Assembly (NCBI GenBank): GCA_964484125.1
Contig: CAZAEK010000008.1
Span: 24,868 to 88,867 of the forward strand
DNA: 64,000 nt
Direction of reading: 5' to 3'
Source: an uncultured Ignavibacterium sp.
GTDB lineage: Bacteria; Bacteroidota; Ignavibacteria; Tepidaquicellales; Tepidaquicellaceae
A program made the position numbers and the translations under genes. A model generated the notes under the pieces. That model saw only the letters and a program-made list of their open reading frames with translations. It searched no databases and had not been told where the DNA came from. The first letter of the stretch is position 1; the number at the start of each line of letters is the position of its first letter. Below, one piece after another: positions 8,491-31,353 of this stretch.

Positions 8491-8514
8491 TATATCAAAA
8501 TATTTTTTTTAGAA

Positions 8515-8546
8515 AAGTGCGACTCGATGGGGTCGCACTTTTTTTG
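8515..8546 (+). terminator. Rho-independent terminator
   Basis: Stem is GTGCGAC-tcgatgg-GGTCGCAC, followed by TTTTTTT. Confidence 0.8.
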
Positions 8547-8566
8547 TTTTATTATAATGATTTCTG

Positions 8567-8634
8567 CTACAAACATTAAACCCCTAAGGGGTTTATGCAT
8601 ACGAAACGACTCCATAGGAGTCGTATGTTTGTAG
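8567..8634. other. 68-nt structured element (three-way junction) between convergent genes; possibly tandem terminators for the minus-strand operon
   Basis: The outer perfect 10-bp stem CTACAAACAT/ATGTTTGTAG encloses two hairpins: AAACCCC-taa-GGGGTTT and ACGACTCC-ata-GGAGTCGT. Confidence 0.4.
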
Positions 8635-8643
8635 AAAGGAATT

Positions 8644-16884: not shown

Positions 16885-18228
16885 ATGAAAGAAAAAATAA
16901 AAATATTACTGGTTGATGACGAATTAAATTCAACTCAGATTCTTGGAAAAGTTCTCAGAAAAAAAGGATTTGATGTATATGAGGAAAATAGCAGCGTTAA
17001 TGCGAAAGAGCTTATCAAAAAGAATTTTTATGATATAATAATATCAGATTTGCAGATGCCAAATGTTTCAGGAATGGACTTGCTCGAAATTAAACCCGAA
17101 CATAGTTTATTTATAATGATAACAGGGTATGGTTCAGTATTATCTGCAGTGGAATCAATGAAAAAAGGAGCATTCGATTATGTGAACAAGCCATTTAATC
17201 TTGACGAATTCATTTTAAAAGTAGAAAAAGCGGCAGAAAAGGTTACGATGCAGACTGAACTTAATAAGTTAAAAGATATTGTTGAGAATGAAAACAATTT
17301 TTATGGAATAATCGGAAAAAGCCAGGAAATGCTTGATATATTTGATTTAATAAGAAATGTATCAAAAGTAAATATAAATTCACTGATTTATGGAGAAAGC
17401 GGAACAGGTAAAGAATTGATAGCCAGAGCAATACATAATTTAAGTGACAGAAACACAAAGCCATTCGTAGCAATAAACTGCAGTGCAATACCTGAAAACC
17501 TTCTGGAGAGTGAGCTTTTCGGACACACAAAGGGTGCATTTACTGGTGCAATTGATTCTCAAAAAGGAGTTTTTGAACAGGCAGATGGAGGCACTTTATT
17601 TTTAGATGAGATAGGTGATATGCCTTATAACCTTCAGGCAAAACTATTAAGAGTTTTAGAAAATTTCGAAGTTAAGCCGCTCGGAAGTGATAAAGTAAAG
17701 AAAATTGATATAAGATTAATATCAGCTACAAATCAAAATCTTGAAGAATTAATAAATGAAAAAAAATTTCGCGATGATTTATACTATAGAATAGCTACAA
17801 TCAAGATTAATCTTCCTCCATTAAGAGCAAGGAGAAGTGATATACCTTTAATAGCATACAATTATCTGAAAAAACTAGCTATTAAATTCGGAAGCGAATA
17901 TGAAATAACACCTGAGGCAATGGAAGCAATTACAAATTATGAATGGAAGGGAAACGTAAGAGAGCTTGAGAATGCTCTTGATATGGCTGCAATAAAAAGC
18001 TCAAATAAAATTATAGACATAACTTCTTTGCCTTTTAAGGGTGACGGAGGTTTTTCTATAAAAGAAATAACAACAGATAATACAAAGCCACAGACCTTAC
18101 TGGAAGTTGAAAAGTCTTATATAAAGCGAATCCTCGAATCTACCGGGGGAAATAAGCAAAAAGCAGCAGAAATCTTACAAATTGACAGAAAAACGCTGTA
18201 TAAAAAAATTAAAGACTATAACCTGTAA
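16885..18228 (+). CDS. Sigma-54-dependent response regulator (NtrC family: REC + AAA+ + Fis-type HTH)
   Basis: REC domain with LLVDDE and IIISDLQMP. AAA+ domain with GESGTGKE, ESELFGHTKGAFTGA (the GAFTGA loop) and LFLDEIG. The C-terminal HTH is GNKQKAAEILQIDRKTLYKK. Confidence 0.9.
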   Translation: MKEKIKILLVDDELNSTQILGKVLRKKGFDVYEENSSVNAKELIKKNFYDIIISDLQMPNVSGMDLLEIKPEHSLFIMITGYGSVLSAVESMKKGAFDYVNKPFNLDEFILKVEKAAEKVTMQTELNKLKDIVENENNFYGIIGKSQEMLDIFDLIRNVSKVNINSLIYGESGTGKELIARAIHNLSDRNTKPFVAINCSAIPENLLESELFGHTKGAFTGAIDSQKGVFEQADGGTLFLDEIGDMPYNLQAKLLRVLENFEVKPLGSDKVKKIDIRLISATNQNLEELINEKKFRDDLYYRIATIKINLPPLRARRSDIPLIAYNYLKKLAIKFGSEYEITPEAMEAITNYEWKGNVRELENALDMAAIKSSNKIIDITSLPFKGDGGFSIKEITTDNTKPQTLLEVEKSYIKRILESTGGNKQKAAEILQIDRKTLYKKIKDYNL

Positions 18229-18266
18229 AACAAGAATGTAGATTAATTCCTCATTCTACAACAATG

Positions 18267-18284
18267 TGTAATAATTCCCCACTT
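18267..18284. promoter_or_regulatory. Candidate upstream activator site, about 50 nt upstream of the -24 element
   Basis: GTGTAATAATTCCCCACT resembles the motif at 16847-16866. The adjacent TGTAGA-N12-TCTACA dyad at 18238-18261 also contains TTAATTCCTCA. Confidence 0.25.
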
Positions 18285-18332
18285 AAATGTTTATTATTTA
18301 TTAGTTTAAATTAATTATTGAACCTATCTTTT

Positions 18333-18348
18333 TGGCACGATAATTGCT
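18333..18348 (+). promoter_or_regulatory. Sigma-54 (-24/-12) promoter
   Basis: TGGCAC-gataa-TTGCT is an exact match to the TGGCAC-N5-TTGCW consensus. It lies immediately downstream of the sigma-54 activator gene. Confidence 0.75.
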
Positions 18349-18353
18349 GAAAA

Positions 18354-18731
18354 ATGAACGTGAAAAAAGTATTAAAAATATTGGTTTTCAGTTTAAATCC
18401 TGAGATGTGTAAATTAATGAAAAAATTTTTTGCAAAATTTGATTACAAATTTGATTGTGTGAAAATAGAAATTGACTCAGACTGGCGAAATCAAATTTTT
18501 GATAAAGAAATAGACTGCATCATTCTTGACACTAATATTAATTCCAGAGTGCAGGTAGAAATAAGGCAAAAATTCAGCAAAGCTATTTTTATTCTGATTC
18601 CCTCCTTCTCAAGTGAACCATATCCTGATTCAAATTCAGCTGATTTAATTCCTGAACCTTTTAAATTCAGTGAACTTGAAAAAGCATTATCTGAAATATA
18701 TAAATCAAAAGCTACTTCTGATGCGCTTTAA
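18354..18731 (+). CDS. Receiver-like (pseudo-REC) protein, first ORF of the cytochrome operon; start codon uncertain
   Basis: The pattern is CheY-like: KILVFSL (the DD acidic pair is replaced), DCIILD (Asp kept), AIFILIPS, and PEPFKFSELEKAL (the conserved Lys in KPF is replaced by Glu). The stop overlaps the next gene's ATG. Confidence 0.45.
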   Translation: MNVKKVLKILVFSLNPEMCKLMKKFFAKFDYKFDCVKIEIDSDWRNQIFDKEIDCIILDTNINSRVQVEIRQKFSKAIFILIPSFSSEPYPDSNSADLIPEPFKFSELEKALSEIYKSKATSDAL

Positions 18732-20586
18732 AACACTGATTTCAATATTGTATTTATTAATTTTTTTTGTTTTAATAATATTCATTGTTTCTTCATCTGT
18801 ACAGGTTAAGGCAAAATATTCAGACGATTGTCTTGCATGTCACGAAGATAAAGACCTTATAATGGAGAAAAACGGGAGAAAAATTTCACTTTATGTAAAT
18901 CCTTCAGTTTATAAAGCATCAGTTCACGGAGGTGCTGATTGTAAAGATTGTCATCAGGGTTACAATCCTGAAGAAATACCTCATAATCCGAAAAGTAAAG
19001 GTGTTAATTGTAATGAATGTCATGATATAAAAAAGAACACTTCCTCTGTTCATAATAATGTAAAGTGTTATTCCTGCCACGGTTATCATGACGTTGTTAC
19101 TGCAAAAGAATTTGCCAAGTCAGATAATTGTATAAATTGCCATAATACAAAAAGCATAACTTCATTCAAACAATCAGTTCATTTCAGAAAAAATATTTCC
19201 TGTGATAAATGTCATAAAGGTGGGCATGAAGTAATAAAAATTTCAAAGTCAGAATCAACAAGACTATGCTCTCAATGTCATAGAAATGCATTTAACGAAG
19301 TAAATAACAGTGTACACAAGCAGGCAAGCGGAAAAGGGCAAACGCCTGTATGCGTTGACTGTCATGGATATCACAGTATAAATACAAACAGACTTAGCAT
19401 AGAAGCACAGTCGTGCTATAAATGCCACCTCAATGAAAAAATGTTCCCCGGTAAAGAAAAGGGTTCTGCAGATTTTGTAGCACAATACGAAAAAAGTGTT
19501 CATAATTCAGTAAGAAAAAACGGAATCCCTGCGGCTTCATGTACAGATTGTCATGGAGACCATTTGATTAAGGGTTCAAAAGACTTAGAGACTAAAGATG
19601 GAATTCTGGAGTCATGTATAAGATGCCATGATAAAGCAGTAAAAGAATTCAGGATGTCAAAACACGGCAATAATGTTGAAAAAAGTCCGGGAAATCCGTT
19701 TGAATGTACTGATTGTCATGGAGAGCACGGAATTTTAGCCGTTAAACTCGATAGTAAACTTTCGAAACTTATGCAAACCGATATGTGTCTTGAATGTCAT
19801 AAAGACAATAAGTTTCAATCGAAATTTAAACCCGGAACGGAATTACACATTAACGATTATTTGAATAGTGCACACTATATAAAGCTGAGAGAAGGAAATC
19901 CAAATGCCGCATCTTGTACCGATTGTCATGGCTCGCATGCGATGTTAAATGCACTTGATCCCAATTCTCCAATAAATCCTAAAAACATTTCCTCAACTTG
20001 CGGACAAAGTAATTGTCATAATAAAATATATAATGAATATAAAGGTTCAATACACGATGTCTCAGTTCAGACGAAAGAAAAATCTGATGCTCCGACTTGC
20101 GTAAATTGTCACGGTAGTCACGGACTTCTTAAAAAAGATGACCCGGCTAATCCTTTAGCAAAACCAAATGGAGTTGTGCAGTTATGTTCTGATTGTCATG
20201 CTTCGGTCAGGATTGTAGAAAATAATAATCTTCCAAAAGGTATAGTAACAGACTTTAATTCAAGTTTCCATGGACTCGCATTAAGAGGTGGTTCACAGGA
20301 GGCAGCAGATTGCGGAAGTTGTCACGGTGTTCACAATGTTCGTCCGTCTTCAGATCCTATGTCAAGTATTCACGATAATAACTTACCGCAGACCTGTGGT
20401 AAATGCCATCCTGGTGCAACACTTGCAACGTTTAAGACTCCTATACACCTTGTAGAAAGTGCAGAAGAAAATGTTATACTAAAATGGGTTAAAATATTAT
20501 ATACATTTTTAATAATTGCAATAATTGGATTTATGGTATTACATAATATTTTTGATTTTATTAAGAAATTAAGGACTAAACATTAA
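18721..20586 (+). CDS. Membrane-anchored multihaem cytochrome c (18 CXXCH + 1 CX4CH)
   Basis: I counted 18 CXXCH motifs plus CGQSNCH. Seven occur as CxxCHGxH, alternating with SVH...CxxCH units. The N-terminal signal/anchor is MRFKTLISILYLLIFF... and the C-terminal TM is ILYTFLIIAIIGFMVL. The ATG at 18721 is preferred over the GTG at 18670. Confidence 0.85.
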   Translation: MRFKTLISILYLLIFFVLIIFIVSSSVQVKAKYSDDCLACHEDKDLIMEKNGRKISLYVNPSVYKASVHGGADCKDCHQGYNPEEIPHNPKSKGVNCNECHDIKKNTSSVHNNVKCYSCHGYHDVVTAKEFAKSDNCINCHNTKSITSFKQSVHFRKNISCDKCHKGGHEVIKISKSESTRLCSQCHRNAFNEVNNSVHKQASGKGQTPVCVDCHGYHSINTNRLSIEAQSCYKCHLNEKMFPGKEKGSADFVAQYEKSVHNSVRKNGIPAASCTDCHGDHLIKGSKDLETKDGILESCIRCHDKAVKEFRMSKHGNNVEKSPGNPFECTDCHGEHGILAVKLDSKLSKLMQTDMCLECHKDNKFQSKFKPGTELHINDYLNSAHYIKLREGNPNAASCTDCHGSHAMLNALDPNSPINPKNISSTCGQSNCHNKIYNEYKGSIHDVSVQTKEKSDAPTCVNCHGSHGLLKKDDPANPLAKPNGVVQLCSDCHASVRIVENNNLPKGIVTDFNSSFHGLALRGGSQEAADCGSCHGVHNVRPSSDPMSSIHDNNLPQTCGKCHPGATLATFKTPIHLVESAEENVILKWVKILYTFLIIAIIGFMVLHNIFDFIKKLRTKH

Positions 20587-21284
20587 TGAATACTTCATCC
20601 GGGAAAAAATATTTAAGAATGTCATTAAATGAAAGAATACAGCATATTCTTTTATTAACTACATTTATTACATTAGTTATTACAGGTTTCGGTTTACTTT
20701 ATCCTGAAGCTTTTTGGGTAAAATGGATAGTAGCTATTGTAGGGCAAAATGCATTTGAGGCAAGAGGTGTTGTTCATAGAATTGCAGCAGTTGTTATGGT
20801 TATAGCTTCAGTTTATCATATTTTATATGTAGTATTTACTAAAAGAGGCAGAAGGTTTGTAATTGATATGTGGTTTAAAATTCAGGATATCAAAGATATG
20901 TTTTCATACCTGAAATACATTGTTGGATTATCAAAAGAAAAACCGAAATTCGGAAGGTTCAGCTATATTGAAAAAATGGAGTATTGGGCAGTTGTATGGG
21001 GTACAGTAGTTATGGGTGCTACAGGCGGAGTACTATGGTTTGAAAATGAATTTCTACCGATAATCGGAATGGATGGAATGTACATAGCAACAGCAATACA
21101 TCTTTACGAAGCAATACTCGCATCATTGGCAATACTTGTCTGGCATTTTTATTTTATTTTTATAAATCCTGATGTATTTCCGATGAATAAGGCATGGATA
21201 ACAGGTTACCTCACACATGAGCAAATGAAACACGAGCATCCTTTGGAACTTGAACAAATTGAATCTGGTAACATAAAAAATTAA
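20586..21284 (+). CDS. Membrane b-type cytochrome, FdnI/HydC/PhsC-like (4 TM, conserved His pairs)
   Basis: Four hydrophobic helices carry His residues (RIQHILLL, VHRIAAV...YHILY, AIHLYEA...VWHFYF). The TAATG junction overlaps the upstream cytochrome c gene. Confidence 0.65.
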   Translation: MNTSSGKKYLRMSLNERIQHILLLTTFITLVITGFGLLYPEAFWVKWIVAIVGQNAFEARGVVHRIAAVVMVIASVYHILYVVFTKRGRRFVIDMWFKIQDIKDMFSYLKYIVGLSKEKPKFGRFSYIEKMEYWAVVWGTVVMGATGGVLWFENEFLPIIGMDGMYIATAIHLYEAILASLAILVWHFYFIFINPDVFPMNKAWITGYLTHEQMKHEHPLELEQIESGNIKN

Positions 21285-21356
21285 CTTAATTTTACACTTG
21301 AATATAAAGATAAAAATATCTTATTTTCCATTAACCAAATTAACTAAAAAACTCCT

Positions 21357-21914
21357 ATGAAGGGCAAACAAACACTATTGACAATCACTGTAGTTGCGGC
21401 TATCGTACTTTCCTTCTCTGCATTTAATTTCTACCATGGTGTGGGACAGTTTAAATACGTTGGCGTGACAAAATGTGTGGGCGCATGTCATAAAACAGAC
21501 GCTCAGGGAAAACAGCTTGATATCTGGAAGAACTCAAAACATTCAATGGCATACAAAACCCTTGAAACTCCTGAAGCAGATAAGATTGCAAAGGAAAAGG
21601 GTTTTGAAACTAAAGCAGCCGAAACTCCAAACTGTCTTAAATGTCACGTACTCGGTAAAGATATGGACCCCTCAGAATTTACAGAGACATTTGATAAAAA
21701 AGATGGAGTTCAGTGTGAAAGCTGTCATGGTCCCGGCTCTGAGTATAAGACAATGTCAATTATGAAAGACAAACAAAAATCAATTGAAAATGGACTTATT
21801 GTCCACACAGAAAAAGAAGCTTTTTGCACAAACTGTCATAATGCAGAGAGCCCAACTTTTAAAGGATTTGAGTACGACAAGATGTGGGATGCAATAAAAC
21901 ATCCAAAGCCGTAA
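21357..21914 (+). CDS. Small periplasmic multihaem cytochrome c (3 CXXCH + 1 CX3CH), cytochrome c554-family-like
   Basis: It has a signal peptide and the motifs CVGACH, CLKCH, CESCH and CTNCH. 185 aa. Confidence 0.7.
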   Translation: MKGKQTLLTITVVAAIVLSFSAFNFYHGVGQFKYVGVTKCVGACHKTDAQGKQLDIWKNSKHSMAYKTLETPEADKIAKEKGFETKAAETPNCLKCHVLGKDMDPSEFTETFDKKDGVQCESCHGPGSEYKTMSIMKDKQKSIENGLIVHTEKEAFCTNCHNAESPTFKGFEYDKMWDAIKHPKP

Positions 21915-21941
21915 TTTATTTTTGATAGTTAATAAGTCATT

Positions 21942-21966
21942 CCCGTTCCGGGAAAGCCGGAACGGG
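21942..21966 (+). other. Intra-operon GC-rich hairpin (attenuator or RNA-stability element)
   Basis: CCCGTTCCGG-gaaag-CCGGAACGGG is a perfect 10-bp stem with no clear T tract after it. Confidence 0.4.
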
Positions 21967-21993
21967 TAAATTATTAAAAACCGTATTATAAAT

Positions 21994-23298
21994 ATGATGA
22001 GAAAATTTATCTACTTTTTAATTCCTCTTTTTGTGGTTCTCTTCACTTCTACAGGTTTATATTCTCAAACTGTTAATGCAAGGTTCAGCACTTCTTTTTA
22101 TACCTGGGAAAGATATGACTCAATCGGTTCTGAATCTTCCACTAAACATTTGAGGGCATACCAGAATATTCTGCTTGATGTCTCGCAGAAAAAATGGTCT
22201 TTCAATACCAATGCTCAGCTTGAAGGGGATATAATAGAAAAATCCGGAAGAGGATTTAGCTACAGATTTTATAGTCTGTATATTAAAGGGTCAAACCTGT
22301 TTGATGTAATGGATGTCAGACTCGGAAGGCAATATGTCTCAGCCGGTGTTGGCAGGGGATATATTGACGGAGCACATCTGAAATTCAAACTCGGTAAAAG
22401 TAAAGAGTATCAACTTACTGCATACGGAGGCGGACTTTCACCACTCTCATACGATTTCGATTATGGAGAAAAATATCAATTAAAAGATAATTTTTCCATT
22501 GGTGCGATGTTTCAGTATTACGGTGTAAAAGACTTAATGCTTGGTGTAAGTTATTATAACAAACACAGAGCCGTACCGAGTTACTATGCCCCAAGACTTG
22601 ACAGCGCTCTTTTTACAAAGATTGTTGAAATTCAAACTGAGCCATTTGCTGATCAACTCGCAGGATTTGATTTTTCTTTTTTCAAGCCATCTTATCAGGC
22701 AATGGGAAAGGTTTACTATGATATAAACCTTAAAAAACTTTACAGGGCTGATTTGAATGCGGGTTTTAATGTTGCCGAAAATCTGCGTTTTAATTTCGGA
22801 TTTTTATATCGCGAACCACAGATAAGCTATAATACCATTTTCTGGGTTTTTCAGCATAAGCCGCTTTCCGAATTTGAAGCAGGATTGGATTATACACTTC
22901 TTAAAAAATATAATATATATTTCAAGGTTTCTGACGTGATGTATGATAACGATAATTCTGCAAAATTCTCATTTGGCTTTTCACATGCAAACTATGGAAT
23001 TTCATTTGTAAAATATACTGGTTATGCAGGAGAGTCTGACGGAGCATTTGGTTATTTCAATTATGAGTTGCTGAGGTCAAAACTTGCAATAACATCAGGT
23101 CTTAATTATTCCAACTATAGTATTAAAAATTATTCTGAAGATAAAGTAAGTGCGTTTTCAGGAATTCTCGGATTAGTTTACAGGCCTGTTGACCATTTCA
23201 CCATTGATTTACAGGGACAGATTATTACGAACAAAATTTATAAGACGGATACAAGAATATTGCTTGGTTTTAATTACTGGTTATTTAAGAAATTTTAA
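21994..23298 (+). CDS. Outer-membrane beta-barrel (porin-like) protein of the cytochrome locus
   Basis: Signal peptide MMRKFIYFLIPLFVVLFTSTGLYSQ. Strands are amphipathic and Tyr/Gly-rich throughout. The C-terminus ...GFNYWLFKKF ends in Phe (OMP signature). Confidence 0.65.
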   Translation: MMRKFIYFLIPLFVVLFTSTGLYSQTVNARFSTSFYTWERYDSIGSESSTKHLRAYQNILLDVSQKKWSFNTNAQLEGDIIEKSGRGFSYRFYSLYIKGSNLFDVMDVRLGRQYVSAGVGRGYIDGAHLKFKLGKSKEYQLTAYGGGLSPLSYDFDYGEKYQLKDNFSIGAMFQYYGVKDLMLGVSYYNKHRAVPSYYAPRLDSALFTKIVEIQTEPFADQLAGFDFSFFKPSYQAMGKVYYDINLKKLYRADLNAGFNVAENLRFNFGFLYREPQISYNTIFWVFQHKPLSEFEAGLDYTLLKKYNIYFKVSDVMYDNDNSAKFSFGFSHANYGISFVKYTGYAGESDGAFGYFNYELLRSKLAITSGLNYSNYSIKNYSEDKVSAFSGILGLVYRPVDHFTIDLQGQIITNKIYKTDTRILLGFNYWLFKKF

Positions 23299-23309
23299 AA
23301 TTCAACATT

Positions 23310-24569
23310 ATGAGAATTATGAAATTTTACACTTTGCTGATTACATGTCTGACTTTTTTCGTTACTATAACTGCCTATAATTTTTATTCGGGCGGGACAG
23401 TTACCTCAAAAAGTATTTTTACAAAACACGTAATAGCAAAGGACAATCCTGATAACAGGACAATTATCAAATTCAATCACTCTAAACATCTGAAAGACGC
23501 AGGGGTACAATGTACTGATTGTCATACTAAAGCTCCAAATTCTGTTAATGCCCTCGAAAGTCTTGTCCCGGTAAAAGCTGCCTGTGCAAACTGTCATGAT
23601 GTTGAAAATAAAAATGAATGCAGTCTATGTCATTTTGAAGGAGTTTTTAAAAAGCTTGTTCCAACTCTCAAGGAATTACATTTCAGCCATAAGAAACATG
23701 TAAAAGACAGTAAAATGCAATGCCTTGATTGCCATAGAAATATGCCCGAGTATAAATATTCAAGTGATAATCCTCAAAAATATCCGGAAATGGAAATATG
23801 TGCCAAATGTCATAACGATGTAGAAGCGACAATGAGCTGTGAGAAATGTCATACAAATCTGACTAATCTGAAACCGATGAATCATCTTCAGTCAAACTTT
23901 CTCAATGAGCATAAATGGGTATTTGAAGCTTCAAATGAAAAAAATAATTGTATGATGTGCCATTCGGATAATTTCTGTCAGGTTTGCCACAGTGCCGGGA
24001 AATATAACGGTTCGAATACAAAAAAAGATTTTTATGCCCCTTATTGGACAAAGAATTCAGGTACAAGAATTGACAGAGCGGAATTACAAAAACTAAATAC
24101 AGTTCATACTCTTAATTACCTTTATACTCACGGAATAGAAGCATTACATAAATCTTATGAGTGTAAAACCTGTCATGATCCGGTAGAGTTCTGTTCTGCC
24201 TGCCATAAGACGGGCGGTAATCTTGTAACTGGTTTCATGCCCAAAAGCCATCTTGTACCAAATTTCAAAACTTTCGGTGTAGGAACAGGTGGCGGATTAC
24301 ACGCTGAACTTGCAAGAAAGGATATTGAATCATGTCAGGCATGTCATGATGTGAACGGCGGTGATCAGATCTGTATAAAGTGTCATTTCGATAATGATGG
24401 AGTGAAAGGTACGAATCCCAGAACACATGAATGGGGATTTATGAAAGATGAAAAAGGAATCTGGCACGAAACACAGGGAGCTATTTGTTTCAGATGCCAT
24501 ACTGATGCAAATGCAAGACCAAATGGAATAGCCGGAATAGGATTCTGTGGCTATTGCCATGGTAAATAA
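23310..24569 (+). CDS. Multihaem cytochrome c (14 CXXCH)
   Basis: I counted 14 CXXCH motifs. It has an N-terminal hydrophobic signal/anchor. 419 aa. Confidence 0.85.
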   Translation: MRIMKFYTLLITCLTFFVTITAYNFYSGGTVTSKSIFTKHVIAKDNPDNRTIIKFNHSKHLKDAGVQCTDCHTKAPNSVNALESLVPVKAACANCHDVENKNECSLCHFEGVFKKLVPTLKELHFSHKKHVKDSKMQCLDCHRNMPEYKYSSDNPQKYPEMEICAKCHNDVEATMSCEKCHTNLTNLKPMNHLQSNFLNEHKWVFEASNEKNNCMMCHSDNFCQVCHSAGKYNGSNTKKDFYAPYWTKNSGTRIDRAELQKLNTVHTLNYLYTHGIEALHKSYECKTCHDPVEFCSACHKTGGNLVTGFMPKSHLVPNFKTFGVGTGGGLHAELARKDIESCQACHDVNGGDQICIKCHFDNDGVKGTNPRTHEWGFMKDEKGIWHETQGAICFRCHTDANARPNGIAGIGFCGYCHGK

Positions 24570-24609
24570 ATAAAATTAATAATAAAAGTTAATTGAATAT
24601 TTAGTCAAT

Positions 24610-25482
24610 ATGAAAAAAAATAATCTTTTATATCTTCTTTTAATACCTGTGGTTATAATAATAATTACTTTATATAGCTGCAGTAAACTGGAAGATAATC
24701 TTGTAAATGCTCCTAAGGCAGGAATACATCCCGAGGGCTGGACCAACCCTGTAAATGAAAATTTTCACGGAAAGTATTTTTACTCGAATAAATGGGATTT
24801 TAAATTTTGTACACAATGTCACGGTGCTGATTATAATGGAGGTAACACGGGTAAAAGCTGTAATGATCCTGCATGCCATGGAAGTTCAACACCTGAAGAT
24901 TGCAGACTATGCCATGGAGACAGGAGTACTACAATTTTCCCGCCTGTTGGACTAAATGGCTCAACCTCAGTTACTTATATTGGTGTTGGTACTCATAACA
25001 CACATTTGAACAAAGATAGTACTCTCAGGAATTCAGCAAGAGTAAGATGTGTTTCATGCCACCCTTCTATAACAGGTTTTTATGACCCGAAACATATTGG
25101 TACGAATCCGGATAACATTGCTGATGTTGTATTTGATTCTCTTTCCAAAACCTCAACAGACGGAATAACTCCAAACCCTGTCTGGAATAGAAATAATCCA
25201 CAGTCATGCTCAGAGACTTATTGTCATGGAAATTTCAAAAATGGAAATTACAGACTAAATCCTGCTTCAATGATTAATCCTTCCTGGACAGATCCTAATT
25301 CTGTATATTGTGGTACCTGCCATGGAAATCCGGGAACAGGAAATCCTCTGCCGGGCGGTACACACCTGCAGGGATTTACAATTTATAATTGCTATTTCTG
25401 CCATGGTTCGGTTATCAGCAATACAGGAAATATTATAAATAAATCAAAACATATAAACGGAATCGTTAATATGAATCAGTAA
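24610..25482 (+). CDS. Lipoprotein multihaem cytochrome c (5 CXXCH + 2 CX4CH; CxxxxCH...CxxCH paired units)
   Basis: Lipobox ...ITLYSC. The units CNDPACH-x7-CRLCH and CSETYCH-x26-CGTCH resemble the Geobacter CxxxxCH/CxxCH domain (TIGR01904, recalled from memory). Confidence 0.75.
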   Translation: MKKNNLLYLLLIPVVIIIITLYSCSKLEDNLVNAPKAGIHPEGWTNPVNENFHGKYFYSNKWDFKFCTQCHGADYNGGNTGKSCNDPACHGSSTPEDCRLCHGDRSTTIFPPVGLNGSTSVTYIGVGTHNTHLNKDSTLRNSARVRCVSCHPSITGFYDPKHIGTNPDNIADVVFDSLSKTSTDGITPNPVWNRNNPQSCSETYCHGNFKNGNYRLNPASMINPSWTDPNSVYCGTCHGNPGTGNPLPGGTHLQGFTIYNCYFCHGSVISNTGNIINKSKHINGIVNMNQ

Positions 25483-25511
25483 ATATATATTTCATCAAGA
25501 TTTAATTAAAA

Positions 25512-25541
25512 AGAGGTTGCCCAAAAGTAGCCTCTTTTTTT
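25512..25541 (+). terminator. Rho-independent terminator candidate
   Basis: AAGAGGTT-10 nt-AGCCTCTT, followed by a T run. Confidence 0.5.
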
Positions 25542-25567
25542 ATTAAATTTTATATACCTTATTAAAC

Positions 25568-25587
25568 ACGGGGTATTTTTCCACACA
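25568..25587. promoter_or_regulatory. Candidate upstream activator site (inverted copy of the 16847 motif)
   Basis: The reverse complement GTGTGGAAAAATACCCCGTG matches GTGTGGAATAATTCCTCATG at 16 of 20 positions. It lies about 80 nt upstream of the second -24 element. Confidence 0.3.
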
Positions 25588-25664
25588 AAGAAAATTTATT
25601 GTCCAAATATACCCATAAAAAGTAAACCTGAATTTTATTTCTTTAAAAAATTATAAATTTAATT

Positions 25665-25680
25665 TGGCACAAAAATTGAT
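25665..25680 (+). promoter_or_regulatory. Sigma-54 (-24/-12) promoter
   Basis: TGGCAC-aaaaa-TTGAT has one mismatch at -12. It lies about 45 nt upstream of the ATG at 25725, which has a GGAGG SD. Confidence 0.6.
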
Positions 25681-25724
25681 ATGTATGTCTAAAATTATCT
25701 TTTAAAAATAAACGGAGGTCACTA

Positions 25725-27119
25725 ATGAAAAGATATTTTTCGTTTTTTTTGATAGTTTCAATAATCTTCATTTCTGAGTCTCTATTCTCGCAGTCAACAA
25801 GTTTTCATATGTTGAGAAAAGGACATGCAAATTTTTATGCTTCAACAAATGGTGGATTTGAAACTATATCAAATATTCCGATTAATGCTCTGCGCTGTTT
25901 GAAATGTCATCCGGGCAAATTGGCAAATAATACACCAATTGATACTGCAACTTATGCACCTTCCTGCAATGATTGCCATAATTTTTCTGCAGGAACTTCA
26001 GTGCCAGATACAATATGTCTGAGATGTCACAGCAGGCAAAAAGTTGAAAGAGCAAATTTCACAGACAAACACAGATCTGCAGGAATGACTTGCGTAACCT
26101 GTCATATTAAGGATGAACTACATGCAGATGCAACTCCTTATTTTTCAGGGTTCGATACTATTCAGGGTAAAACATGTACAACAGTTGGTTGTCATAACAA
26201 CGTCCCTGTAACTCCTGACGATTCACTTGCTCACGCAATTCACAACAGCAAGCTCGAATGTGCCACATGCCATGCAAGGTCTCAGATAACCTGTTACAAC
26301 TGCCACTTTGAAACAGAAATCTGGCAGGGAATGAGAGGATTTAAAAGACCAATTGGCCAATATAAAGGTTTCATAATGCTCGGAAGATATACCAAAACCG
26401 GAAAGGTAGGTATTGTCAATTATCAGTCAATTATCTATCAGGGCAATAAAACATTTAATGCATGGGGTCCGTATTATCCTCATACGATAATGCCAAAGGA
26501 TTCAACACGCGGCTGCTCCGAATGTCACAACGCTCCAACTATTCAGGAATACAATACAACAACAAAAATCGTTGTTGCAAAATGGGATTCTACTCTTACA
26601 CCAAAGAAAATAGTTCACACTCAGGGAATGATTCCTGTTCCACCTGATTATTTAACTTCTTTGGTTTTTGATTTTGCAAACTATATTGGCAGAGTTGATA
26701 CAACATATACAGACCCGACCAAATGGGTATATGCCAAAACCGGTTTAACAGGAAATCAGATGCTATCGAGATATGTAATGCCTTTAACTGCGGCACAGAT
26801 GACGGCACTTGGCTCAACTATCGGTATCACACCAATCAGCACCGAGGTACCAGGTAATTTTGAATTATTCCAAAACTATCCAAATCCGTTCAACCCGAGC
26901 ACAGTTATCAAATTTAATATTGCAAAGACTGCAAACGTTTCGATAAATGTATATAATTCACTTGGTAAACTTGTTACAACATTAGTATCGCAGAAATTGA
27001 ATTCGGGTACATATCAGGTTGATTTTGATGGCAAAGAACTTTCCAGTGGTATTTATTTCTACACAATGAATATTGACGGAAAGGTATCAGCTGCTAAAAA
27101 GATGCTGTTGGTAAAGTAA
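25725..27119 (+). CDS. Multihaem cytochrome c (7 CXXCH + 1 CX4CH) with T9SS C-terminal sorting domain
   Basis: It has a signal peptide and the motifs CLKCH, CNDCH, CLRCH, CVTCH, CTTVGCH, CATCH, CYNCH and CSECH. The C-terminus is FQNYPNPFNPSTVIKFNI...GIYFYTMNIDGKVSAAKKMLLVK. Confidence 0.85.
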   Translation: MKRYFSFFLIVSIIFISESLFSQSTSFHMLRKGHANFYASTNGGFETISNIPINALRCLKCHPGKLANNTPIDTATYAPSCNDCHNFSAGTSVPDTICLRCHSRQKVERANFTDKHRSAGMTCVTCHIKDELHADATPYFSGFDTIQGKTCTTVGCHNNVPVTPDDSLAHAIHNSKLECATCHARSQITCYNCHFETEIWQGMRGFKRPIGQYKGFIMLGRYTKTGKVGIVNYQSIIYQGNKTFNAWGPYYPHTIMPKDSTRGCSECHNAPTIQEYNTTTKIVVAKWDSTLTPKKIVHTQGMIPVPPDYLTSLVFDFANYIGRVDTTYTDPTKWVYAKTGLTGNQMLSRYVMPLTAAQMTALGSTIGITPISTEVPGNFELFQNYPNPFNPSTVIKFNIAKTANVSINVYNSLGKLVTTLVSQKLNSGTYQVDFDGKELSSGIYFYTMNIDGKVSAAKKMLLVK

Positions 27120-27148: not shown

Positions 27149-27189
27149 GAGACCGGTTCCGATATTTGTCGGGACCGGTCTCAGTTTTT
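27149..27189 (+). terminator. Strong rho-independent terminator
   Basis: GAGACCGGTTCCG-atatttgt-CGGGACCGGTCTC is a 13-bp stem with one G-U, followed by AGTTTTT. Confidence 0.8.
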
Positions 27190-27364: not shown

Positions 27365-27826
27365 ATGAAATATTTAACATTACTTACTATTATTCTGGTT
27401 TTTATAGCTGGTTGTTCAAAAATGGAAGAAAAAAAAGAAACAACAGGCAATAAAACAATGCCCCCGGTAACAAAAGACGGAATGAATAATCCACATTCAG
27501 ACATGCCGGGAATGCAGAATAATTCAGATTCCAAAGGAAATGAACAAGCTTTAAAATTATCACAGGAAGCGTTTGAGTTTGAGAAAATTTATGAGAAAAA
27601 TAAAGACGAGAAGACTAAAAAACAGCTTATTGAAAAGCATCTTGCAGCTGCAAAAGAACTCTCTCCCTCTACCAATCCTGAACATATGAATAAGGAGACA
27701 ATCAGAACATCTTTAAAACATTTTAAAAGAGTTCTTGAACTTGAGCCGGATAATGCAGATGCAAAAGCAGGAAAGGAAGAAATAGTTCAGATGTATGAAA
27801 TGATAGGAGTTCCTTTACCGGAATAA
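27365..27826 (+). CDS. Lipoprotein with Met/His-rich N-terminal segment and helical (TPR-like) C-terminal part
   Basis: Lipobox LVFIAGC, then MPPVTKDGMNNPHSDMPGMQNN. No family recognised. Confidence 0.4.
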   Translation: MKYLTLLTIILVFIAGCSKMEEKKETTGNKTMPPVTKDGMNNPHSDMPGMQNNSDSKGNEQALKLSQEAFEFEKIYEKNKDEKTKKQLIEKHLAAAKELSPSTNPEHMNKETIRTSLKHFKRVLELEPDNADAKAGKEEIVQMYEMIGVPLPE

Positions 27827-27864: not shown

Positions 27865-28524
27865 TTGAATATAATTTATAAATCTGCCGTTTTTATCATC
27901 ATAACAGGAGTGTTACTGGCTGCATTCTTATCGCCAATTCCAAATATACCTGCTCTTGGCGAGAAAGCAAGGATAATTTTCCTTCATGTTCCGACTGCAT
28001 GGCTTAGCGTAGTAGCTTTTTTAATTTCTATGATATATTCAGTCATATATCTTAAAAAAAGAGATATATTCGCTGATATAAAAGCATTTGCCTCGGCTGA
28101 GATCGGATTTTTATTTTGTATTCTTGCAACAGTTACAGGTTCAGTTTGGGCAAAATTCAGTTGGGGTTCTTTCTGGAACTGGGATCCGAGGGAGACTTCA
28201 ATTTTTATCCTTTTGCTTATTTATGGAGCTTATTTCTCATTAAGGTCAGCTATAGATAATCCGGAACAAAAAGCTAAACTCGCATCTGTATATTCCATTA
28301 TTGCTTTTATAACTGTACCTTTTTTCATATTTATAATGCCGCGTCTTGTTGAGACGCTTCACCCTGACCCGATTATTAACGACAGGGGCAAAATAAATAT
28401 GTCACCGAATATGCAGATAATATTTTTCAGTTCATTAGCTGGATTTACTATGCTTTTTTTCTGGATGTTAAATGTTAAGGTACGATTGGAAAATCTAAGA
28501 ATTAAAAAAATTAATATAAACTAA
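27865..28524 (+). CDS. ccmC: Haem exporter/haem-handling protein CcmC (System I cytochrome c maturation)
   Basis: Trp-rich WWD motif WGSFWNWDPRETS, flanking His residues (FLHVPTAW, ETLHPDP) and 6 TM segments. It has a TTG start. Confidence 0.8.
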   Translation: MNIIYKSAVFIIITGVLLAAFLSPIPNIPALGEKARIIFLHVPTAWLSVVAFLISMIYSVIYLKKRDIFADIKAFASAEIGFLFCILATVTGSVWAKFSWGSFWNWDPRETSIFILLLIYGAYFSLRSAIDNPEQKAKLASVYSIIAFITVPFFIFIMPRLVETLHPDPIINDRGKINMSPNMQIIFFSSLAGFTMLFFWMLNVKVRLENLRIKKININ

Positions 28525-28534
28525 AGAATAATTT

Positions 28535-28648
28535 ATGAATGATATCTATGTTGTTTTAATTATCGCTTTAATAATCTGGTTTGGATTGTTTATTTATTTA
28601 TTTATGATTGACAAAAGATTAAAAAAACTTGAAGATGAAAACAAATAA
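28535..28648 (+). CDS. ccmD: CcmD-like small membrane protein (37 aa; below the ORF-track cut-off)
   Basis: My own translation is MNDIYVVLIIALIIWFGLFIYLFMIDKRLKKLEDENK. It is a single TM followed by a basic tail, placed between ccmC and ccmE as in canonical ccm operons. Confidence 0.6.
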   Translation: MNDIYVVLIIALIIWFGLFIYLFMIDKRLKKLEDENK

Positions 28649-28654
28649 AATTTT

Positions 28655-29041
28655 ATGAATAACAGAATTAAAATAATTATAGGGGTTGTTATTGTTCTTG
28701 TCTTTGTATCCATTGGCTTTTTTAAGTTTATGGATACAAAAATTGAATACGTCAATTTTCAGGAGGCAACTGCTAAGTCAAAAGTCGTTGAAGTTAAAGG
28801 CGTATGGCTTAAAGACAAGGAAACAAAATTTGATCCTGAAAAAGCAACTTTTGAATTCTTTATGAAAGATGATTATAATACTGAAATGAAGGTAATTTAC
28901 CAGGGAGGAAAACCTAATAACTTTGAAGTTGCAGATGCAATAGTTGTTAAAGGTCAGGTAAAAAACGGCTCGTTTCATGCAAAAGAAATTCTGACAAAAT
29001 GCCCGTCTAAATACGAAGGCGACGGACAGGATGTAAAATAA
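28655..29041 (+). CDS. ccmE: Haem chaperone CcmE, CxxxY variant
   Basis: It has an N-terminal TM anchor and an OB-fold-length body. The C-terminal LTKCPSKYEG sits where HxxxY is found in canonical CcmE. Confidence 0.75.
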   Translation: MNNRIKIIIGVVIVLVFVSIGFFKFMDTKIEYVNFQEATAKSKVVEVKGVWLKDKETKFDPEKATFEFFMKDDYNTEMKVIYQGGKPNNFEVADAIVVKGQVKNGSFHAKEILTKCPSKYEGDGQDVK

Positions 29042-29067
29042 TATTTCACCATAATTTTAATCTTAAT

Positions 29068-31353
29068 ATGATAGGAAAAATTCTCGTTTATATAACATTA
29101 GCCGCAAGTTTTATATCAATTATCGGCTATGCGTTAACTTATTTCAGAAAAAATAATCTTCTTAAGATATCAAGATTATTTTTTCACATTACAGTTATAA
29201 GTGTACTGTTCGCTTCGGCTTACTTATTAAGTCTGATTTTATCTCATCAGTTCCAGTATTCCTATGTCTGGGAATATAGCAGCCGTTCACTCGGAACACC
29301 ACTTCTGATTTCCACTTTCTACGCAGGACAGGAAGGAAGTTTTTTACTCTGGGCACTTTTTGCATCAATTATCGGAATATTTCTGATAAATAATGTCTCG
29401 AAAAATTCTGATTTTGAAGCACCTGTAATGATGATTTATACATTAGTAATAGCATTCCTTGCAGTGCTTTTAGTACTGAAATCACCCTTTACTACTATCT
29501 GGGAAGCATTCCCGGGACAGGTAAAAGAAAATTATATGCCTGAGGATGGAAGAGGGCTAAACCCGATATTACAGAACTTCTGGATGGTAATACACCCGCC
29601 TATTTTATTTATCGGCTTTGCTTCACTTGCAGTACCATTTTCTTTTGCACTTGCAACCCTGTTTAATAAAAAATACAGGGAATGGGTTTACTATGTAATG
29701 CCATGGATGCTATTTGCTTCAGCTACTTTAGGCCTTGGTATTATTCTCGGAGGATATTGGTCTTATGGTGTTCTCGGCTGGGGCGGATATTGGGCATGGG
29801 ATCCGGTAGAAAATTCATCTCTGATTCCATGGCTCGTTTCAGTTGCGGCTTTGCATACTCTTATTGGTCAGAAAGCAACAGAAGGATATAAAAAAACAAA
29901 TATTATTTTATCAATTATTGCTTATCTGCTTGTACTTTATTCTACTTTTCTTACAAGAAGCGGAATACTTCAGGATGCTTCTGTTCATTCCTTTGTTAAG
30001 CCCGGAATGGAAGTATATATAGCACTTGTCCTTTTCATCTCTTCATTTGCATTAATATCTGCTATTGCGATTGCAGTAAGATTTAAGTCTCTGAGTGAAG
30101 TTGCAAAAAAAGATGCGAAAGTAAATATTCTTTCAAGAGAAGCGGTTTTGTATATCGGGGCACTGATTATTCTTGCATCAGGTGCTATTATCATTGCAGG
30201 AACAAGTTTACCTATTTTCTCCAAAAGCACAGTAGATATCAGTTTCTATAACCAGATGAATATGCCAATTGCAATTGTAATGCTCGTTTTTGCAGCAATA
30301 GCTTTTTTCCTTGATTGGAGATCAACTGACACTAAAAAGTTTCTAAATAAATTAATTACTCCGGCTGCACTTGCGCTTGTTACAACCATTATCCTTGCTA
30401 TATTTGCAATTAATGAATTAGTATATATAATATTTACATTTGTTATATTTTTTGCTTTCTTTTCCGGTTTAATAAAACTCGGAAATGTTTTCAAGGCAAA
30501 GAAATTAACTTTTGGTGCCGCAGTTGCACATATCGGACTTGCACTTTTCTTCCTCGGAATTATTGCATCTTCAAAATACAGTGAAGAAGTAAAGTTATCA
30601 CTTGAAATGGGTAAACCTGCAGAAGCTTTTGGATATTTATTCACCTATACAGGAGCAGAGCCGTTTGACGACCCTCAAAATCCAAACGATGAAAAATATT
30701 ATTTTAACATACTCGTTGAAAAAGATAATAAAGAAATGGTATTAAAGCCGGTGATGTATTTCAGTAGTTTCAATGAAGGCCTTATGAAAAATCCTGATAT
30801 AGCAAGTTTTGTTACTAAAGATATTTATCTCTCTCCGATAGAATTAATTGCTCCCCAGAAATTCAACCCCAAAGATGAACAAGCAATTGGTCAAAATGAA
30901 GAAAAAGAAATCAATGGTGTAAAAATAAAATTTATTGATTTTGACCTGAGCCAGGCACCAATGGGAAATCAGGCGGAAATGACAGATTATTCTATTTTTG
31001 CTAATGTCAGCACTACTTATAACGGAAAAACTAATCCTTTAAAACTCGAATTGAAATATGTTGGAGGAGTGCCTGAACCTGTAGAAATTAATCTTCCGCA
31101 GGATGAAAAAATTACATTAATGTTTACAGGTATGAATGTAAAAAATGAACAGAACCCGGTATCATCAGCAAAAATAGTTGTTGCAACCGAAGAAACTAAA
31201 TCAAAATTTAAAAAGCAGGAAGAAATGATGATAGCAAGTGTTGCTATAAAACCATTTATCGGAGTTTTATGGCTTGGTGCTTTTATAATGATTTTTGGTT
31301 TCTTCTATTCAATTATAAAAAGAGTCAGGGATTTGAAAAAGGTAAATAATTAA
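29068..31353 (+). CDS. ccmF: Cytochrome c haem lyase subunit CcmF
   Basis: 761 aa and polytopic, with the WWD motif WGGYWAWDPVENSSLIPW. Confidence 0.85.
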   Translation: MIGKILVYITLAASFISIIGYALTYFRKNNLLKISRLFFHITVISVLFASAYLLSLILSHQFQYSYVWEYSSRSLGTPLLISTFYAGQEGSFLLWALFASIIGIFLINNVSKNSDFEAPVMMIYTLVIAFLAVLLVLKSPFTTIWEAFPGQVKENYMPEDGRGLNPILQNFWMVIHPPILFIGFASLAVPFSFALATLFNKKYREWVYYVMPWMLFASATLGLGIILGGYWSYGVLGWGGYWAWDPVENSSLIPWLVSVAALHTLIGQKATEGYKKTNIILSIIAYLLVLYSTFLTRSGILQDASVHSFVKPGMEVYIALVLFISSFALISAIAIAVRFKSLSEVAKKDAKVNILSREAVLYIGALIILASGAIIIAGTSLPIFSKSTVDISFYNQMNMPIAIVMLVFAAIAFFLDWRSTDTKKFLNKLITPAALALVTTIILAIFAINELVYIIFTFVIFFAFFSGLIKLGNVFKAKKLTFGAAVAHIGLALFFLGIIASSKYSEEVKLSLEMGKPAEAFGYLFTYTGAEPFDDPQNPNDEKYYFNILVEKDNKEMVLKPVMYFSSFNEGLMKNPDIASFVTKDIYLSPIELIAPQKFNPKDEQAIGQNEEKEINGVKIKFIDFDLSQAPMGNQAEMTDYSIFANVSTTYNGKTNPLKLELKYVGGVPEPVEINLPQDEKITLMFTGMNVKNEQNPVSSAKIVVATEETKSKFKKQEEMMIASVAIKPFIGVLWLGAFIMIFGFFYSIIKRVRDLKKVNN

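Follow-up and report, generated by a model that had tools for sequence, protein, structure and literature searches.

The closest described counterparts of the locus analysed here, which encodes several multihaem cytochromes and a putative porin at positions 16885-27119 of a 64-kb stretch of DNA (hereafter the window) from an uncultured Ignavibacterium sp., are porin-cytochrome (pcc) gene clusters. For Ignavibacterium album JCM 16511, Shi 2014 (PMC4245776) predicted the pcc cluster IALB_1840-1837, in which IALB_1840 is a periplasmic cytochrome, IALB_1839 a porin-like protein, IALB_1838 a protein of 400 aa with 14 haems, which was the largest Pcc periplasmic cytochrome found in that study, and IALB_1837 an outer-membrane cytochrome with atypical CXnCH motifs. 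Such clusters were reported again in Ignavibacteria metagenome-assembled genomes (MAGs; PMC6137239, PMC7399161). A second type of system is the cbcBA cluster of Geobacter sulfurreducens (Joshi, Chan & Bond 2021, bioRxiv 10.1101/2021.04.15.440034), comprising a sigma-54 promoter, small hypothetical and receiver genes, the 7-haem CbcA with a C-terminal transmembrane (TM) His and the 4-TM CbcB, with the gene of the activator BccR adjoining. CbcBA is induced via BccR and required for respiration near -0.21 V, and homologous cbcBA clusters were described in Bacteroidetes and Calditrichaeota in the same work. The CbcL/MtoC/MtrH family of fused quinol oxidases or quinone reductases finally joins an N-terminal multihaem c-type half to a HydC/FdnI-like b half, with 3-23 haems and two members in Ignavibacteriae (Shi 2018, PMC6295460).

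The window locus, which was read with the adjoining ccm genes as context, unites genes of both kinds. An NtrC-type activator and a small pseudo-receiver (orf125) precede a 19-haem cytochrome (cyt638) and its b-type partner (cytb232), followed by the four genes of a pcc cluster (cyt185, barrel434, cyt419 and lipo290) and by an octahaem cytochrome (t9ss464) carrying a sorting domain of the type IX secretion system (T9SS). A candidate conduit for extracellular electron transfer (EET) is the best reading of this arrangement, and on the strength of sequences, structural models and analogy we hold it to be rather probable that the locus is a sigma-54-regulated respiratory electron-export pathway made of three separable modules. 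The initial annotation had regarded the whole combination as lacking a characterised precedent, which turned out to be too broad a claim. The pcc core and the sigma-54-controlled split bc quinol oxidase are of an already known kind, the four-gene core having been published for I. album in 2014 (PMC4245776) and sigma-54 control of a split quinol module having its precedent in Geobacter CbcBA/BccR. What is new here is the compaction into one block and, above all, the sigma-54-controlled, T9SS-tagged octahaem cytochrome.

The porin-cytochrome core and the quinol module

A search with barrel434 returned 184 matching protein clusters, and at least 117 Ignavibacteria species genomes encode a relative. 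For synteny, 80 Ignavibacteria loci among the barrel434 matches listed were compared with the window by tblastn with all window proteins, while domains were called by Pfam and NCBIfam HMM searches. In 76 of these 80 loci, barrel434, cyt419 and lipo290 stand together as a core; tblastn also found an orthologue of cyt185 in 72, usually directly 5' of it. A Pcc gene cluster is defined by neighbouring genes for an outer-membrane barrel and for two multihaem cytochromes, one periplasmic and one an outer-membrane lipoprotein, and this is what the window holds. The parallel that the initial annotation had drawn to Geobacter ombB-omaB-omcB holds, in the order of porin, 14-haem cytochrome and lipoprotein. 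By published description, cyt185, barrel434, cyt419 and lipo290 match IALB_1840, IALB_1839, IALB_1838 and IALB_1837, respectively, apparently being the same four genes in the same order and in the same class; the putative orthology is judged from that description and from the presence of the core in 76 of the 80 loci, the type-strain locus not being among these. The 2014 description of the I. album cluster, on the other hand, has no sigma-54 activator, cbc-like module or T9SS cytochrome in the cluster.

Ten open reading frames, all on the + strand, were found at the coordinates that the initial annotation had given, and a script count reproduced its 47 CXXCH and five variant haem motifs over five cytochromes exactly (Table 1). 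The variant motifs are real haem sites, either conserved in orthologues or aligned with their canonical CXXCH. Orthologues of cyt638 conserve its CX4CH, as those of lipo290 do with the second of their two; the other, at Cys84 of lipo290, aligns with a canonical CXXCH in most orthologues, and the CX3CH site of cyt185 alternates with CXXCH, which some orthologues have. HMM searches, which the initial annotation had proposed, also confirm the c554 family of cyt185, the TIGR01904 domain of lipo290, the 4-TM b-type cytochrome and the T9SS domain. Fourteen CXXCH motifs are present in 75 of 78 orthologues of cyt419, a protein weakly similar to c7, ACIII ActA and QrcA-type modules, whose gene starts after a gap of 11 nt behind barrel434. 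PDB sequence searches with the cytochromes of the locus gave only short c7, NrfB, ActA and reaction-centre-like modules, and none for lipo290 and t9ss464. Of 73 lipo290 orthologues, 72 have a Cys at the end of the signal peptide with a small residue in front of it, in most cases Gly or Ser, and an acidic stretch with the pattern S-[EK]-x-[DK]-[DN]-[DN] follows this lipobox Cys in 63 of the 72. The stretch appears to resemble the export signal of Bacteroidetes surface lipoproteins, reportedly the subject of work by Lauber et al. in 2016.

The initial annotation had taken the 434-aa protein for a beta-barrel ending in Phe, and the AlphaFold2 model agrees, showing 22 long and two short strands (pLDDT 78.4). 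The Pcc barrels of Shi 2014 (PMC4245776), with about 20 predicted strands, are smaller than MtrB; the model of barrel434 has 22-24. As estimated from strand number only, this barrel, which has no plug, should be wide enough for a haem wire. It matched no Pfam or NCBIfam family, and a Foldseek search against the PDB for a match to MtrB gave only generic large barrels (AlgE, ushers, OprD family) with TM-scores of 0.4-0.49. We link barrel434 to Geobacter OmbB by analogy, from its architecture and the literature. Relatives were found only in Ignavibacteria-type genomes, the best at 94% identity in MAGs labelled Ignavibacterium album or Ignavibacteriae.

Upstream of the core, cytb232 was searched exhaustively against 1.84 billion representatives, which yielded 2256 relatives. 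Its family profile matches E. coli FdnI (1KQF_C) from end to end at E 1e-5 and places the four haem-b His ligands of FdnI on H20, H64, H172 and H187, each with a conservation of at least 98% among 53 sequences. Many of the top relatives are proteins of 450-906 aa that have the b domain as their C-terminus. Two of these, P0366 (906 aa, with a 'cytochrome c3 family protein' of Ignavibacteria in its cluster) and P0367 (from Schekmanbacteria, 653 aa), run collinear to cyt638 up to and including its C-terminal HN helix and then continue into the b domain. The likeness to CbcL, which had been called 'conceptual', is hence stronger than claimed, and cyt638 and cytb232 are best described as a predicted split version of fused c-b proteins that have the architecture of CbcL/MtoC/MtrH. 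In the order of the fused proteins, a single His lies in helices 1, 2 and 3 each and a pair in helix 5, a pattern that, compared by text description, seems to match what Joshi et al. describe for CbcL. Looking up the clusters of cytb232 relatives as a way to Geobacter CbcB or CbcL was given up, as only MAG names came back.

The haem count that had been assigned to cyt638 stands, with 18+1 motifs in 40 of 51 orthologues, while its extent needs correction: the likely start is ATG 18721, giving 621 aa, and gene callers chose it too for a public contig of identical sequence. True orthologues have the C-terminal helix with its nearly invariant 'GGMxLHN'. With this start, cyt638 shares 11 nt with orf125 and, at its stop, 1 nt with the start of cytb232, overlaps that indicate translational coupling.

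Predicted sigma-54 promoters and the T9SS-tagged octahaem cytochrome

The initial annotation had placed a consensus -24/-12 promoter behind an NtrC-type activator, and both are confirmed. The activator consists of a receiver, an AAA+ domain with GAFTGA and a Fis-type HTH, its best NCBIfam matches being NtrC, AtoC and ZraR, every one under the equivalog cut-off, and orthologues lie 5' of the cbc module (ntrC-orf125-cyt638-cytb232) in 31 of the 80 loci. Promoter P1 matches the scan consensus TGGCAC-N5-TTGCW perfectly, with GG and GC ten bases apart, and its core is identical in L003 and L004, the loci of the two closest relatives (other L-numbers denote loci in other genomes), though the flanks differ. 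Sites with at most one mismatch were found directly 5' of orf125 or cyt638 orthologues in at least 14 loci; overall, scanning 1.38 Mb at this threshold gave about 34 sites on the gene strand versus six on the opposite one. Because the site is conserved in at least 14 related loci, sigma-54 control of P1 is supported at the sequence level. The activator is an orphan, having no adjoining kinase gene. Two histidine kinases are encoded elsewhere in the window, at 46532-47917 on the - strand and at 49223-51721 on the + strand, one of which is a PAS-GAF hybrid with a receiver, and both are candidate partners of the activator.

Directly downstream of P1, the receiver-like reading of orf125 holds in part. 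Profile-profile comparison by hhalign places it with receiver domains (probability 90.8%, E 1.2e-6), and it keeps the column of the phospho-acceptor Asp. It has lost the acidic pair, however, has Glu in place of the conserved Lys and gives no Pfam match even at E 10, so that neither PF00072 nor the catalytic residues identify it as a receiver. orf125 is a real gene, kept in 31 loci, and is best named a pseudo-receiver. Its conserved first beta-strand requires a start at ATG 18354 or GTG 18360, and the GTG, kept in L003 and L004 where the ATG is absent, is possibly the true one. From the end of the -12 element of P1, it is 5 nt to ATG 18354 and 11 nt to GTG 18360. The orf125 mRNA would be leaderless or nearly so, maybe starting on GUG, because the start sits about where sigma-54 transcription should begin.

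Both terminators that had been proposed, 3' of lipo290 and of t9ss464, fold stably (Table 1). A further hairpin lies in the gap between cyt185 and barrel434, and 29 of 58 loci have a hairpin of unrelated sequence with -15 kcal/mol or less in the same place. A conserved attenuator or a processing or stability element is suggested by this, which would favour the periplasmic shuttle over the downstream genes.

The octahaem cytochrome t9ss464 is the most distinctive part of the locus. Its C-terminal domain exceeds the curated cut-offs of both Por_Secre_tail (PF18962; 1.8e-11, 44.6 bits vs 27) and TIGR04183 (5.6e-10, 39.1 bits vs 23), and a Sec signal peptide, MKRYFSFFLIVSIIFISESLFS/QS, was identified by inspection. 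In Foldseek searches with the AlphaFold2 model (pLDDT 88.8), the C-terminal domain matches PorU (6za2, rmsd 2.7) and RemA in the T9SS translocon (8gl6_D, TMt 0.62); for the haem part and the beta-rich middle, Foldseek gave no PDB relative. All eight haem motifs, CX4CH included, are invariant in 59 homologues. Nearly all of the best 120 matches combine PF18962 with cytochrome c7/c3 modules, and the named sources among them are Ignavibacteria, KSB1, Calditrichia, Kryptoniota and Bacteroidetes. Homologues of about 375 aa from Acidobacteria (Blastocatellia) and 'bacterium HR10' (P0340, P0355 and P0356) have no T9SS domain; the sorting domain therefore looks like a modular addition in T9SS-bearing phyla.

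We tentatively propose, with more doubt than attaches to the pathway as a whole, that this protein is the first noticed member of a widespread sigma-54-controlled, T9SS-exported multihaem family in Ignavibacteriota, KSB1, Calditrichota, Kryptoniota and some Bacteroidota. The family would constitute an undescribed route by which members of the Fibrobacterota-Chlorobiota-Bacteroidota (FCB) group place haem wires on or beyond the surface, and would here have been recruited beside a pcc cluster as terminal reductase. No paper linking T9SS with multihaem cytochromes was found in the literature searched, a limited library in which such a gap is absence of evidence only. Three further proteins of the window carry a T9SS domain, namely a BNR-repeat protein (4364-6418), a Kelch-repeat protein (6560-8488) and a 333-aa protein (35865-36866), and because of these the organism appears to make broad use of T9SS cargo. 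No gene of the T9SS machinery was identified within the 64 kb.

As to the second -24/-12 promoter that had been claimed in front of t9ss464, its position is kept in orthologues, while its -12 element departs from the consensus (Table 1). P2 is conserved in L003 and L004, which have TTGAT as in the window. More broadly, a GGCA[CT]-N5-xTG element is seen 54-64 nt ahead of the ATG not only in the window but also in L003, L004, L083, L085, L086 and L089, with TTGTG in L083 and the perfect TGGCACATTGTTTGCG in L085. Consensus sites also stand 5' of TPR-cytochrome operons in L088 (KSB1, TGGCACTGTCATTGCA) and L091 (Calditrichaceae), so that L085, L088 and L091 all have full-consensus elements. In sum, the element is present in 9 of 11 T9SS-cytochrome loci, or in 7 of 9 independent contexts when the window, L003 and L004 are counted as one, compared with a background of 44 in 4264 segments of 350 nt (about 1%) that hold a site with at most one mismatch. 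The t9ss464 orthologues are mostly monocistronic and stand alone in unrelated neighbourhoods, and sigma-54 control of the T9SS cytochrome is supported because the position of the element is kept in these unrelated genomic contexts. From the sequence comparison, P2 appears credible despite its non-canonical -12. Furthermore, genes of PAS-sigma-54 activators adjoin the T9SS cytochrome in L090 and L091 and lie about 2 kb upstream in L088.

Several smaller observations concern the surroundings of these promoters. L003 (~13580-13600) and L004 contain a perfect palindrome, TGTGGGATTTCTCCACA, about 85 nt 5' of P2, of which the window has a degenerate copy at 25571-25590, and which may be an activator binding site. 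A TGTGT-N7-CCCCA stretch about 70 nt 5' of P1 resembles this palindrome. A shared upstream activator site of the form TGTGG-N7-CCACA, which L003 and L004 carry, was not upheld, TGTG-N9-CACA having no match in the window, and is kept as a lead only. In three loci, L088 (5561-8388, KSB1), L091 (4441-6434, Calditrichaceae) and L090 (3056-7234, an MAG of Ignavibacteria), a small TPR protein of about 150 aa with a conserved 'EDCPC' motif accompanies the T9SS cytochrome. The lipoprotein orf153, for which a Pfam search at E up to 10 gave nothing meaningful, was ruled out as this small TPR partner at 12-17% identity. The ccm genes follow orf153 here, and ccmC lies within 2.5 kb after lipo290 in 29 of the 80 loci. 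The CcmE of the window (28655-29041) ends in TKCPSKYEG, which we take to be the Cys-type (CxxxY) variant of this haem chaperone, unlike the His-type of E. coli.

Table 1. Genes and regulatory elements of the locus and its ccm context; positions count from the first letter of the window
Feature	Position	Strand	Haem motifs	Assignment and evidence
ntrC-type activator	16885..18228	+		NtrC-type sigma-54 enhancer-binding protein, 447 aa; Response_reg 4e-20, Sigma54_activat 1e-71, HTH_8 1e-14
P1	18333..18348	+		Predicted sigma-54 promoter, TGGCACGATAATTGCT; sole zero-mismatch -24/-12 site in 64 kb
orf125	18354..18731	+		Predicted single-domain pseudo-receiver; tblastn orthologues in 31 loci
cyt638	18721..20586	+	18 CXXCH + 1 CX4CH	19-haem c-type cytochrome, 621 aa; N-terminal signal/anchor, C-terminal TM helix with conserved His-Asn
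cytb232	20586..21284	+		4-TM dihaem b-type quinone-interacting subunit (FdnI/HydC family); Pfam Ni_hydr_CYTB 2e-12
cyt185	21357..21914	+	3 CXXCH + 1 CX3CH	Periplasmic tetrahaem cytochrome, c554 family; Pfam Cytochrome_C554 2e-16
Intercistronic hairpin	21942..21966	+		cyt185/barrel434 gap; GC-rich, 10 bp, no U tail, -23 kcal/mol, z -4.9
barrel434	21994..23298	+		Outer-membrane beta-barrel, 434 aa; signal peptide, C-terminal Phe
cyt419	23310..24569	+	14 CXXCH	14-haem c-type cytochrome; signal peptide; candidate barrel-inserted/periplasmic wire
lipo290	24610..25482	+	5 CXXCH + 2 CX4CH	7-haem lipoprotein cytochrome; GSu_C4xC__C2xCH domain (TIGR01904 6e-13)
Terminator 3' of lipo290	25508..25540	+		Intrinsic; 13-bp stem, U7 tail, -18.5 kcal/mol, z -6.0
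P2	25665..25680	+		Putative sigma-54-type promoter, TGGCACAAAAATTGAT; one mismatch, -12 GA, not GC
t9ss464	25725..27119	+	7 CXXCH + 1 CX4CH	Octahaem c-type cytochrome; signal peptide, beta-rich middle, T9SS type A C-terminal domain
Terminator 3' of t9ss464	27149..27182	+		Strong, intrinsic; 15-bp stem, 9 GC pairs, -31.6 kcal/mol, z -8.3
orf153	27365-27826	+		Lipoprotein 5' of ccmC, context gene
ccmC, ccmE, ccmF	27865..31353	+		System I cytochrome c maturation; Pfam Cytochrom_C_asm, CcmE, CcmF_C

Proposed pathway, module history and competing explanations

Gene content, haem sites, domain families, terminators, synteny, predicted folds and the conservation of both promoters are shown by the analysis. 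For the pathway as a whole, we infer the subcellular locations, complex formation, read-through from P1, the pairing of regulators and promoters, outward flow and the acceptor. Phosphorylated by an unlinked kinase, the NtrC-type activator would open P1 for transcription of orf125, cyt638 and cytb232, which probably reads on into cyt185, barrel434, cyt419 and lipo290, since no terminator was found between P1 and 25508, the sole structure there being the hairpin at 21942 without a U tail. cytb232 would exchange electrons with menaquinol, oxidising it, and pass them to the 19-haem periplasmic cyt638, held against it by the C-terminal TM helix with its conserved His. From there, cyt185 would shuttle electrons to the 14-haem cyt419, seated in barrel434, and both of the latter would form a porin-cytochrome complex across the outer membrane with lipo290 at the surface. 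t9ss464 would be made from its own sigma-54-type promoter, matured in the periplasm by the adjacent Ccm system, exported in folded form via the T9SS and left on or released from the surface, acting as an extra terminal carrier to the acceptor. The latter could be Fe(III) or Mn(IV) minerals, humics, sulfur species or a partner cell.

The initial annotation had described the locus as one same-strand block, which is true of the window and of few other genomes. Of the 48 loci with both modules, 45 have cbc 5' of the pcc core, in the same orientation and no more than 10 kb away, and three have it on the opposite strand. cytb232 abuts cyt185 as in the window in only 4 of the 45 same-strand loci; an insert of about 2.2 kb separates them in 31 and one of 5-7 kb in 10. 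In L032, the insert (7267-9288) encodes a 673-aa membrane-anchored multihaem cytochrome with an NrfH/NapC-type N-terminus, which would be a second, ImcH/CymA-like quinol dehydrogenase; about 31 other loci have it as well, and the window lineage has lost this NrfH-like gene. t9ss464 occurs at the pcc-cluster position only in L003 and L004 besides the window, lipo290 being followed directly by orf153 and ccmCEF elsewhere. Because of the rare abutment, the inserts elsewhere and the restriction of t9ss464 at this site to L003 and L004, the single-block layout is best seen as a recent, lineage-specific arrangement of older separable modules.

This history leaves room for an explanation in which the three modules serve different respiratory branches and form a 'cytochrome island' beside the ccm genes, having become neighbours only via deletion and insertion. 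The 4 of 45 abutting loci and the three with cbc on the opposite strand are in line with it, as are the NrfH-like quinol dehydrogenase cytochrome standing between the modules in most Ignavibacteria and the T9SS cytochrome gene, which is elsewhere monocistronic and here has its own promoter and terminators. We nevertheless consider it unlikely: cbc and pcc modules keep the same strand and a distance of no more than 10 kb in nearly all loci with both, the KSB1 locus L088 again joins pcc-like cytochromes, a sigma-54 activator and a T9SS cytochrome, and both promoters of the window are of the sigma-54 type. The hardware might also run inward, taking up electrons at the surface from Fe(II), a cathode or a syntrophic partner, with cyt638/cytb232 reducing menaquinone like FdnHI of Fdh-N. 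The full-length alignment of cytb232 with FdnI, including all four ligands, speaks for this direction, since FdnI normally reduces quinone; CbcBA/BccR, on the contrary, the closest characterised analogue with the same regulation, is a quinol oxidase during Fe(III) reduction. CbcL/MtoC/MtrH homologues occur in Fe(II) oxidisers as well as in Fe(III) reducers with no distinguishing feature (PMC6295460), and I. album did not reduce Fe or Mn oxides, but the Ignavibacteria in culture are organoheterotrophs, and Fe(III) reduction is known from Melioribacter (cited in PMC6137239, PMC7399161). A multi-omics paper on Melioribacter roseus (PMC5492636), checked for expression evidence, contains none of the words 'porin', 'multiheme' and 'ferrihydrite'. 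The surroundings of the locus showed no gene for carbon fixation or of the Cyc2 type, and altogether we judge inward flow to be quite improbable.

Lastly, the barrel could be an ordinary diffusion or export channel and the cytochromes a periplasmic network reducing a soluble substrate. Such a role would agree with a barrel outside any family for which Foldseek returns only generic porins, AlgE and ushers. However, Pfam and NCBIfam scans of the locus found no catalytic subunit of the molybdopterin, iron-sulfur (FeS) or sirohaem type, 76 of 80 loci keep the barrel gene in its place between two multihaem genes, the cytochrome downstream is a lipoprotein with an acidic post-Cys stretch, and the plug-less barrel with its 22-24 modelled strands would be far larger than a diffusion porin. 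This explanation appears very improbable to us.

Returning to the electron-export pathway, a number of points weigh against it. FdnI-type b subunits work in the quinone-reducing direction in Fdh-N, and neither HMM searches nor Foldseek gave a sequence or fold link of barrel434 to OmbB or MtrB. P2 has GA instead of the canonical GC at -12. The NrfH-like multihaem gene of most relatives is absent from the window, where only 21285-21356 lies between cytb232 and cyt185. The modules appear separable in evolution, given the 4 of 45 loci in which they abut, the three with opposite strands and the T9SS orthologues located elsewhere; a physical or regulatory link between them is therefore not required. 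Furthermore, I. album, which has the apparently orthologous pcc cluster, did not grow on Fe(III) or Mn(IV) oxides (PMC4245776, citing Iino 2010). The extracellular conduit proposed by the initial annotation stays the best reading on its testable features; nothing shows that the acceptor is an insoluble mineral.

Significance and relation to known systems

Ignavibacteria occur in large numbers in anode biofilms, iron-rich springs, aquifers and wastewater reactors, and their role in iron and humic turnover is inferred almost wholly from clusters such as this one. The pcc core comes near to being a trait of the whole class, given that at least 117 species genomes encode a relative of the barrel and 76 of 80 loci have the core intact. 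A quinol module of the CbcL/CbcBA-like, putatively sigma-54-controlled kind usually accompanies it, which offers a testable regulatory handle in the form of one activator and one promoter. The T9SS-tagged octahaem family seems to share sigma-54 control across several phyla. If T9SS exports folded multihaem cytochromes, the known EET secretion routes would widen and the combination of a multihaem domain with Por_Secre_tail would become a sequence marker for electroactive FCB members, beside the cbcBA-type markers proposed for Geobacter relatives.

Among the characterised systems, OmbB-OmaB-OmcB of Geobacter sulfurreducens (Liu et al. 2014, as cited in PMC4245776) has the same order of porin, periplasmic multihaem and lipoprotein multihaem cytochrome. 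lipo290 and the Geobacter lipoprotein cytochrome both carry GSu_C4xC__C2xCH (TIGR01904), and in each the barrel is smaller than MtrB, in the case of barrel434 by modelled strand number. The two complexes differ in their haem numbers, with 14 and 7 here versus 8 and 12 in Geobacter, and in their barrels, which have no detectable sequence-family link; moreover, the Geobacter complex has been shown to carry electrons across the membrane, whereas for that of the window such transfer is predicted. In principle, the arrangement is also like Shewanella MtrCAB, where a multihaem wire sits in a large barrel capped by a surface lipoprotein cytochrome. barrel434 has 22-24 strands in its model compared to 26 in MtrB, and the surface cytochrome of MtrCAB is a lipoprotein dependent on the type II secretion system (T2SS), while the extra one of the window is T9SS-tagged.

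The quinol module resembles CbcBA/BccR in its sigma-54 promoter, its REC-AAA-HTH activator, its small receiver-type gene, a multihaem c subunit whose C-terminal TM helix bears a His, the order of c before b and a separate 4-TM dihaem b subunit, which is unusually well conserved in both. Unlike CbcBA, it has 19 haems rather than 7 and a co-directional instead of a divergent activator gene, and cytb232 itself bears four FdnI-type ligands where CbcB is described with three. The two were compared by operon layout. The CbcL/MtoC/MtrH proteins are fused, whereas cyt638 and cytb232 are two genes that appear translationally coupled, with fused homologues of 650-906 aa collinear to both. CbcL itself reportedly figures as a fused c-b protein in work by Zacharoff from 2016.

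The sorting of t9ss464 follows the pattern of T9SS type A cargo such as P. gingivalis RgpB and PorU or F. johnsoniae RemA, with a Sec signal and a C-terminal Ig-like sorting domain. Its passenger, however, is an octahaem cytochrome, whereas the known T9SS cargo consists of proteases, adhesins and glycanases. On the reading tentatively proposed for this protein, its role would be parallel to that of the T2SS-dependent MtrC/OmcA or of OmcS/OmcZ in Proteobacteria and Desulfobacterota.

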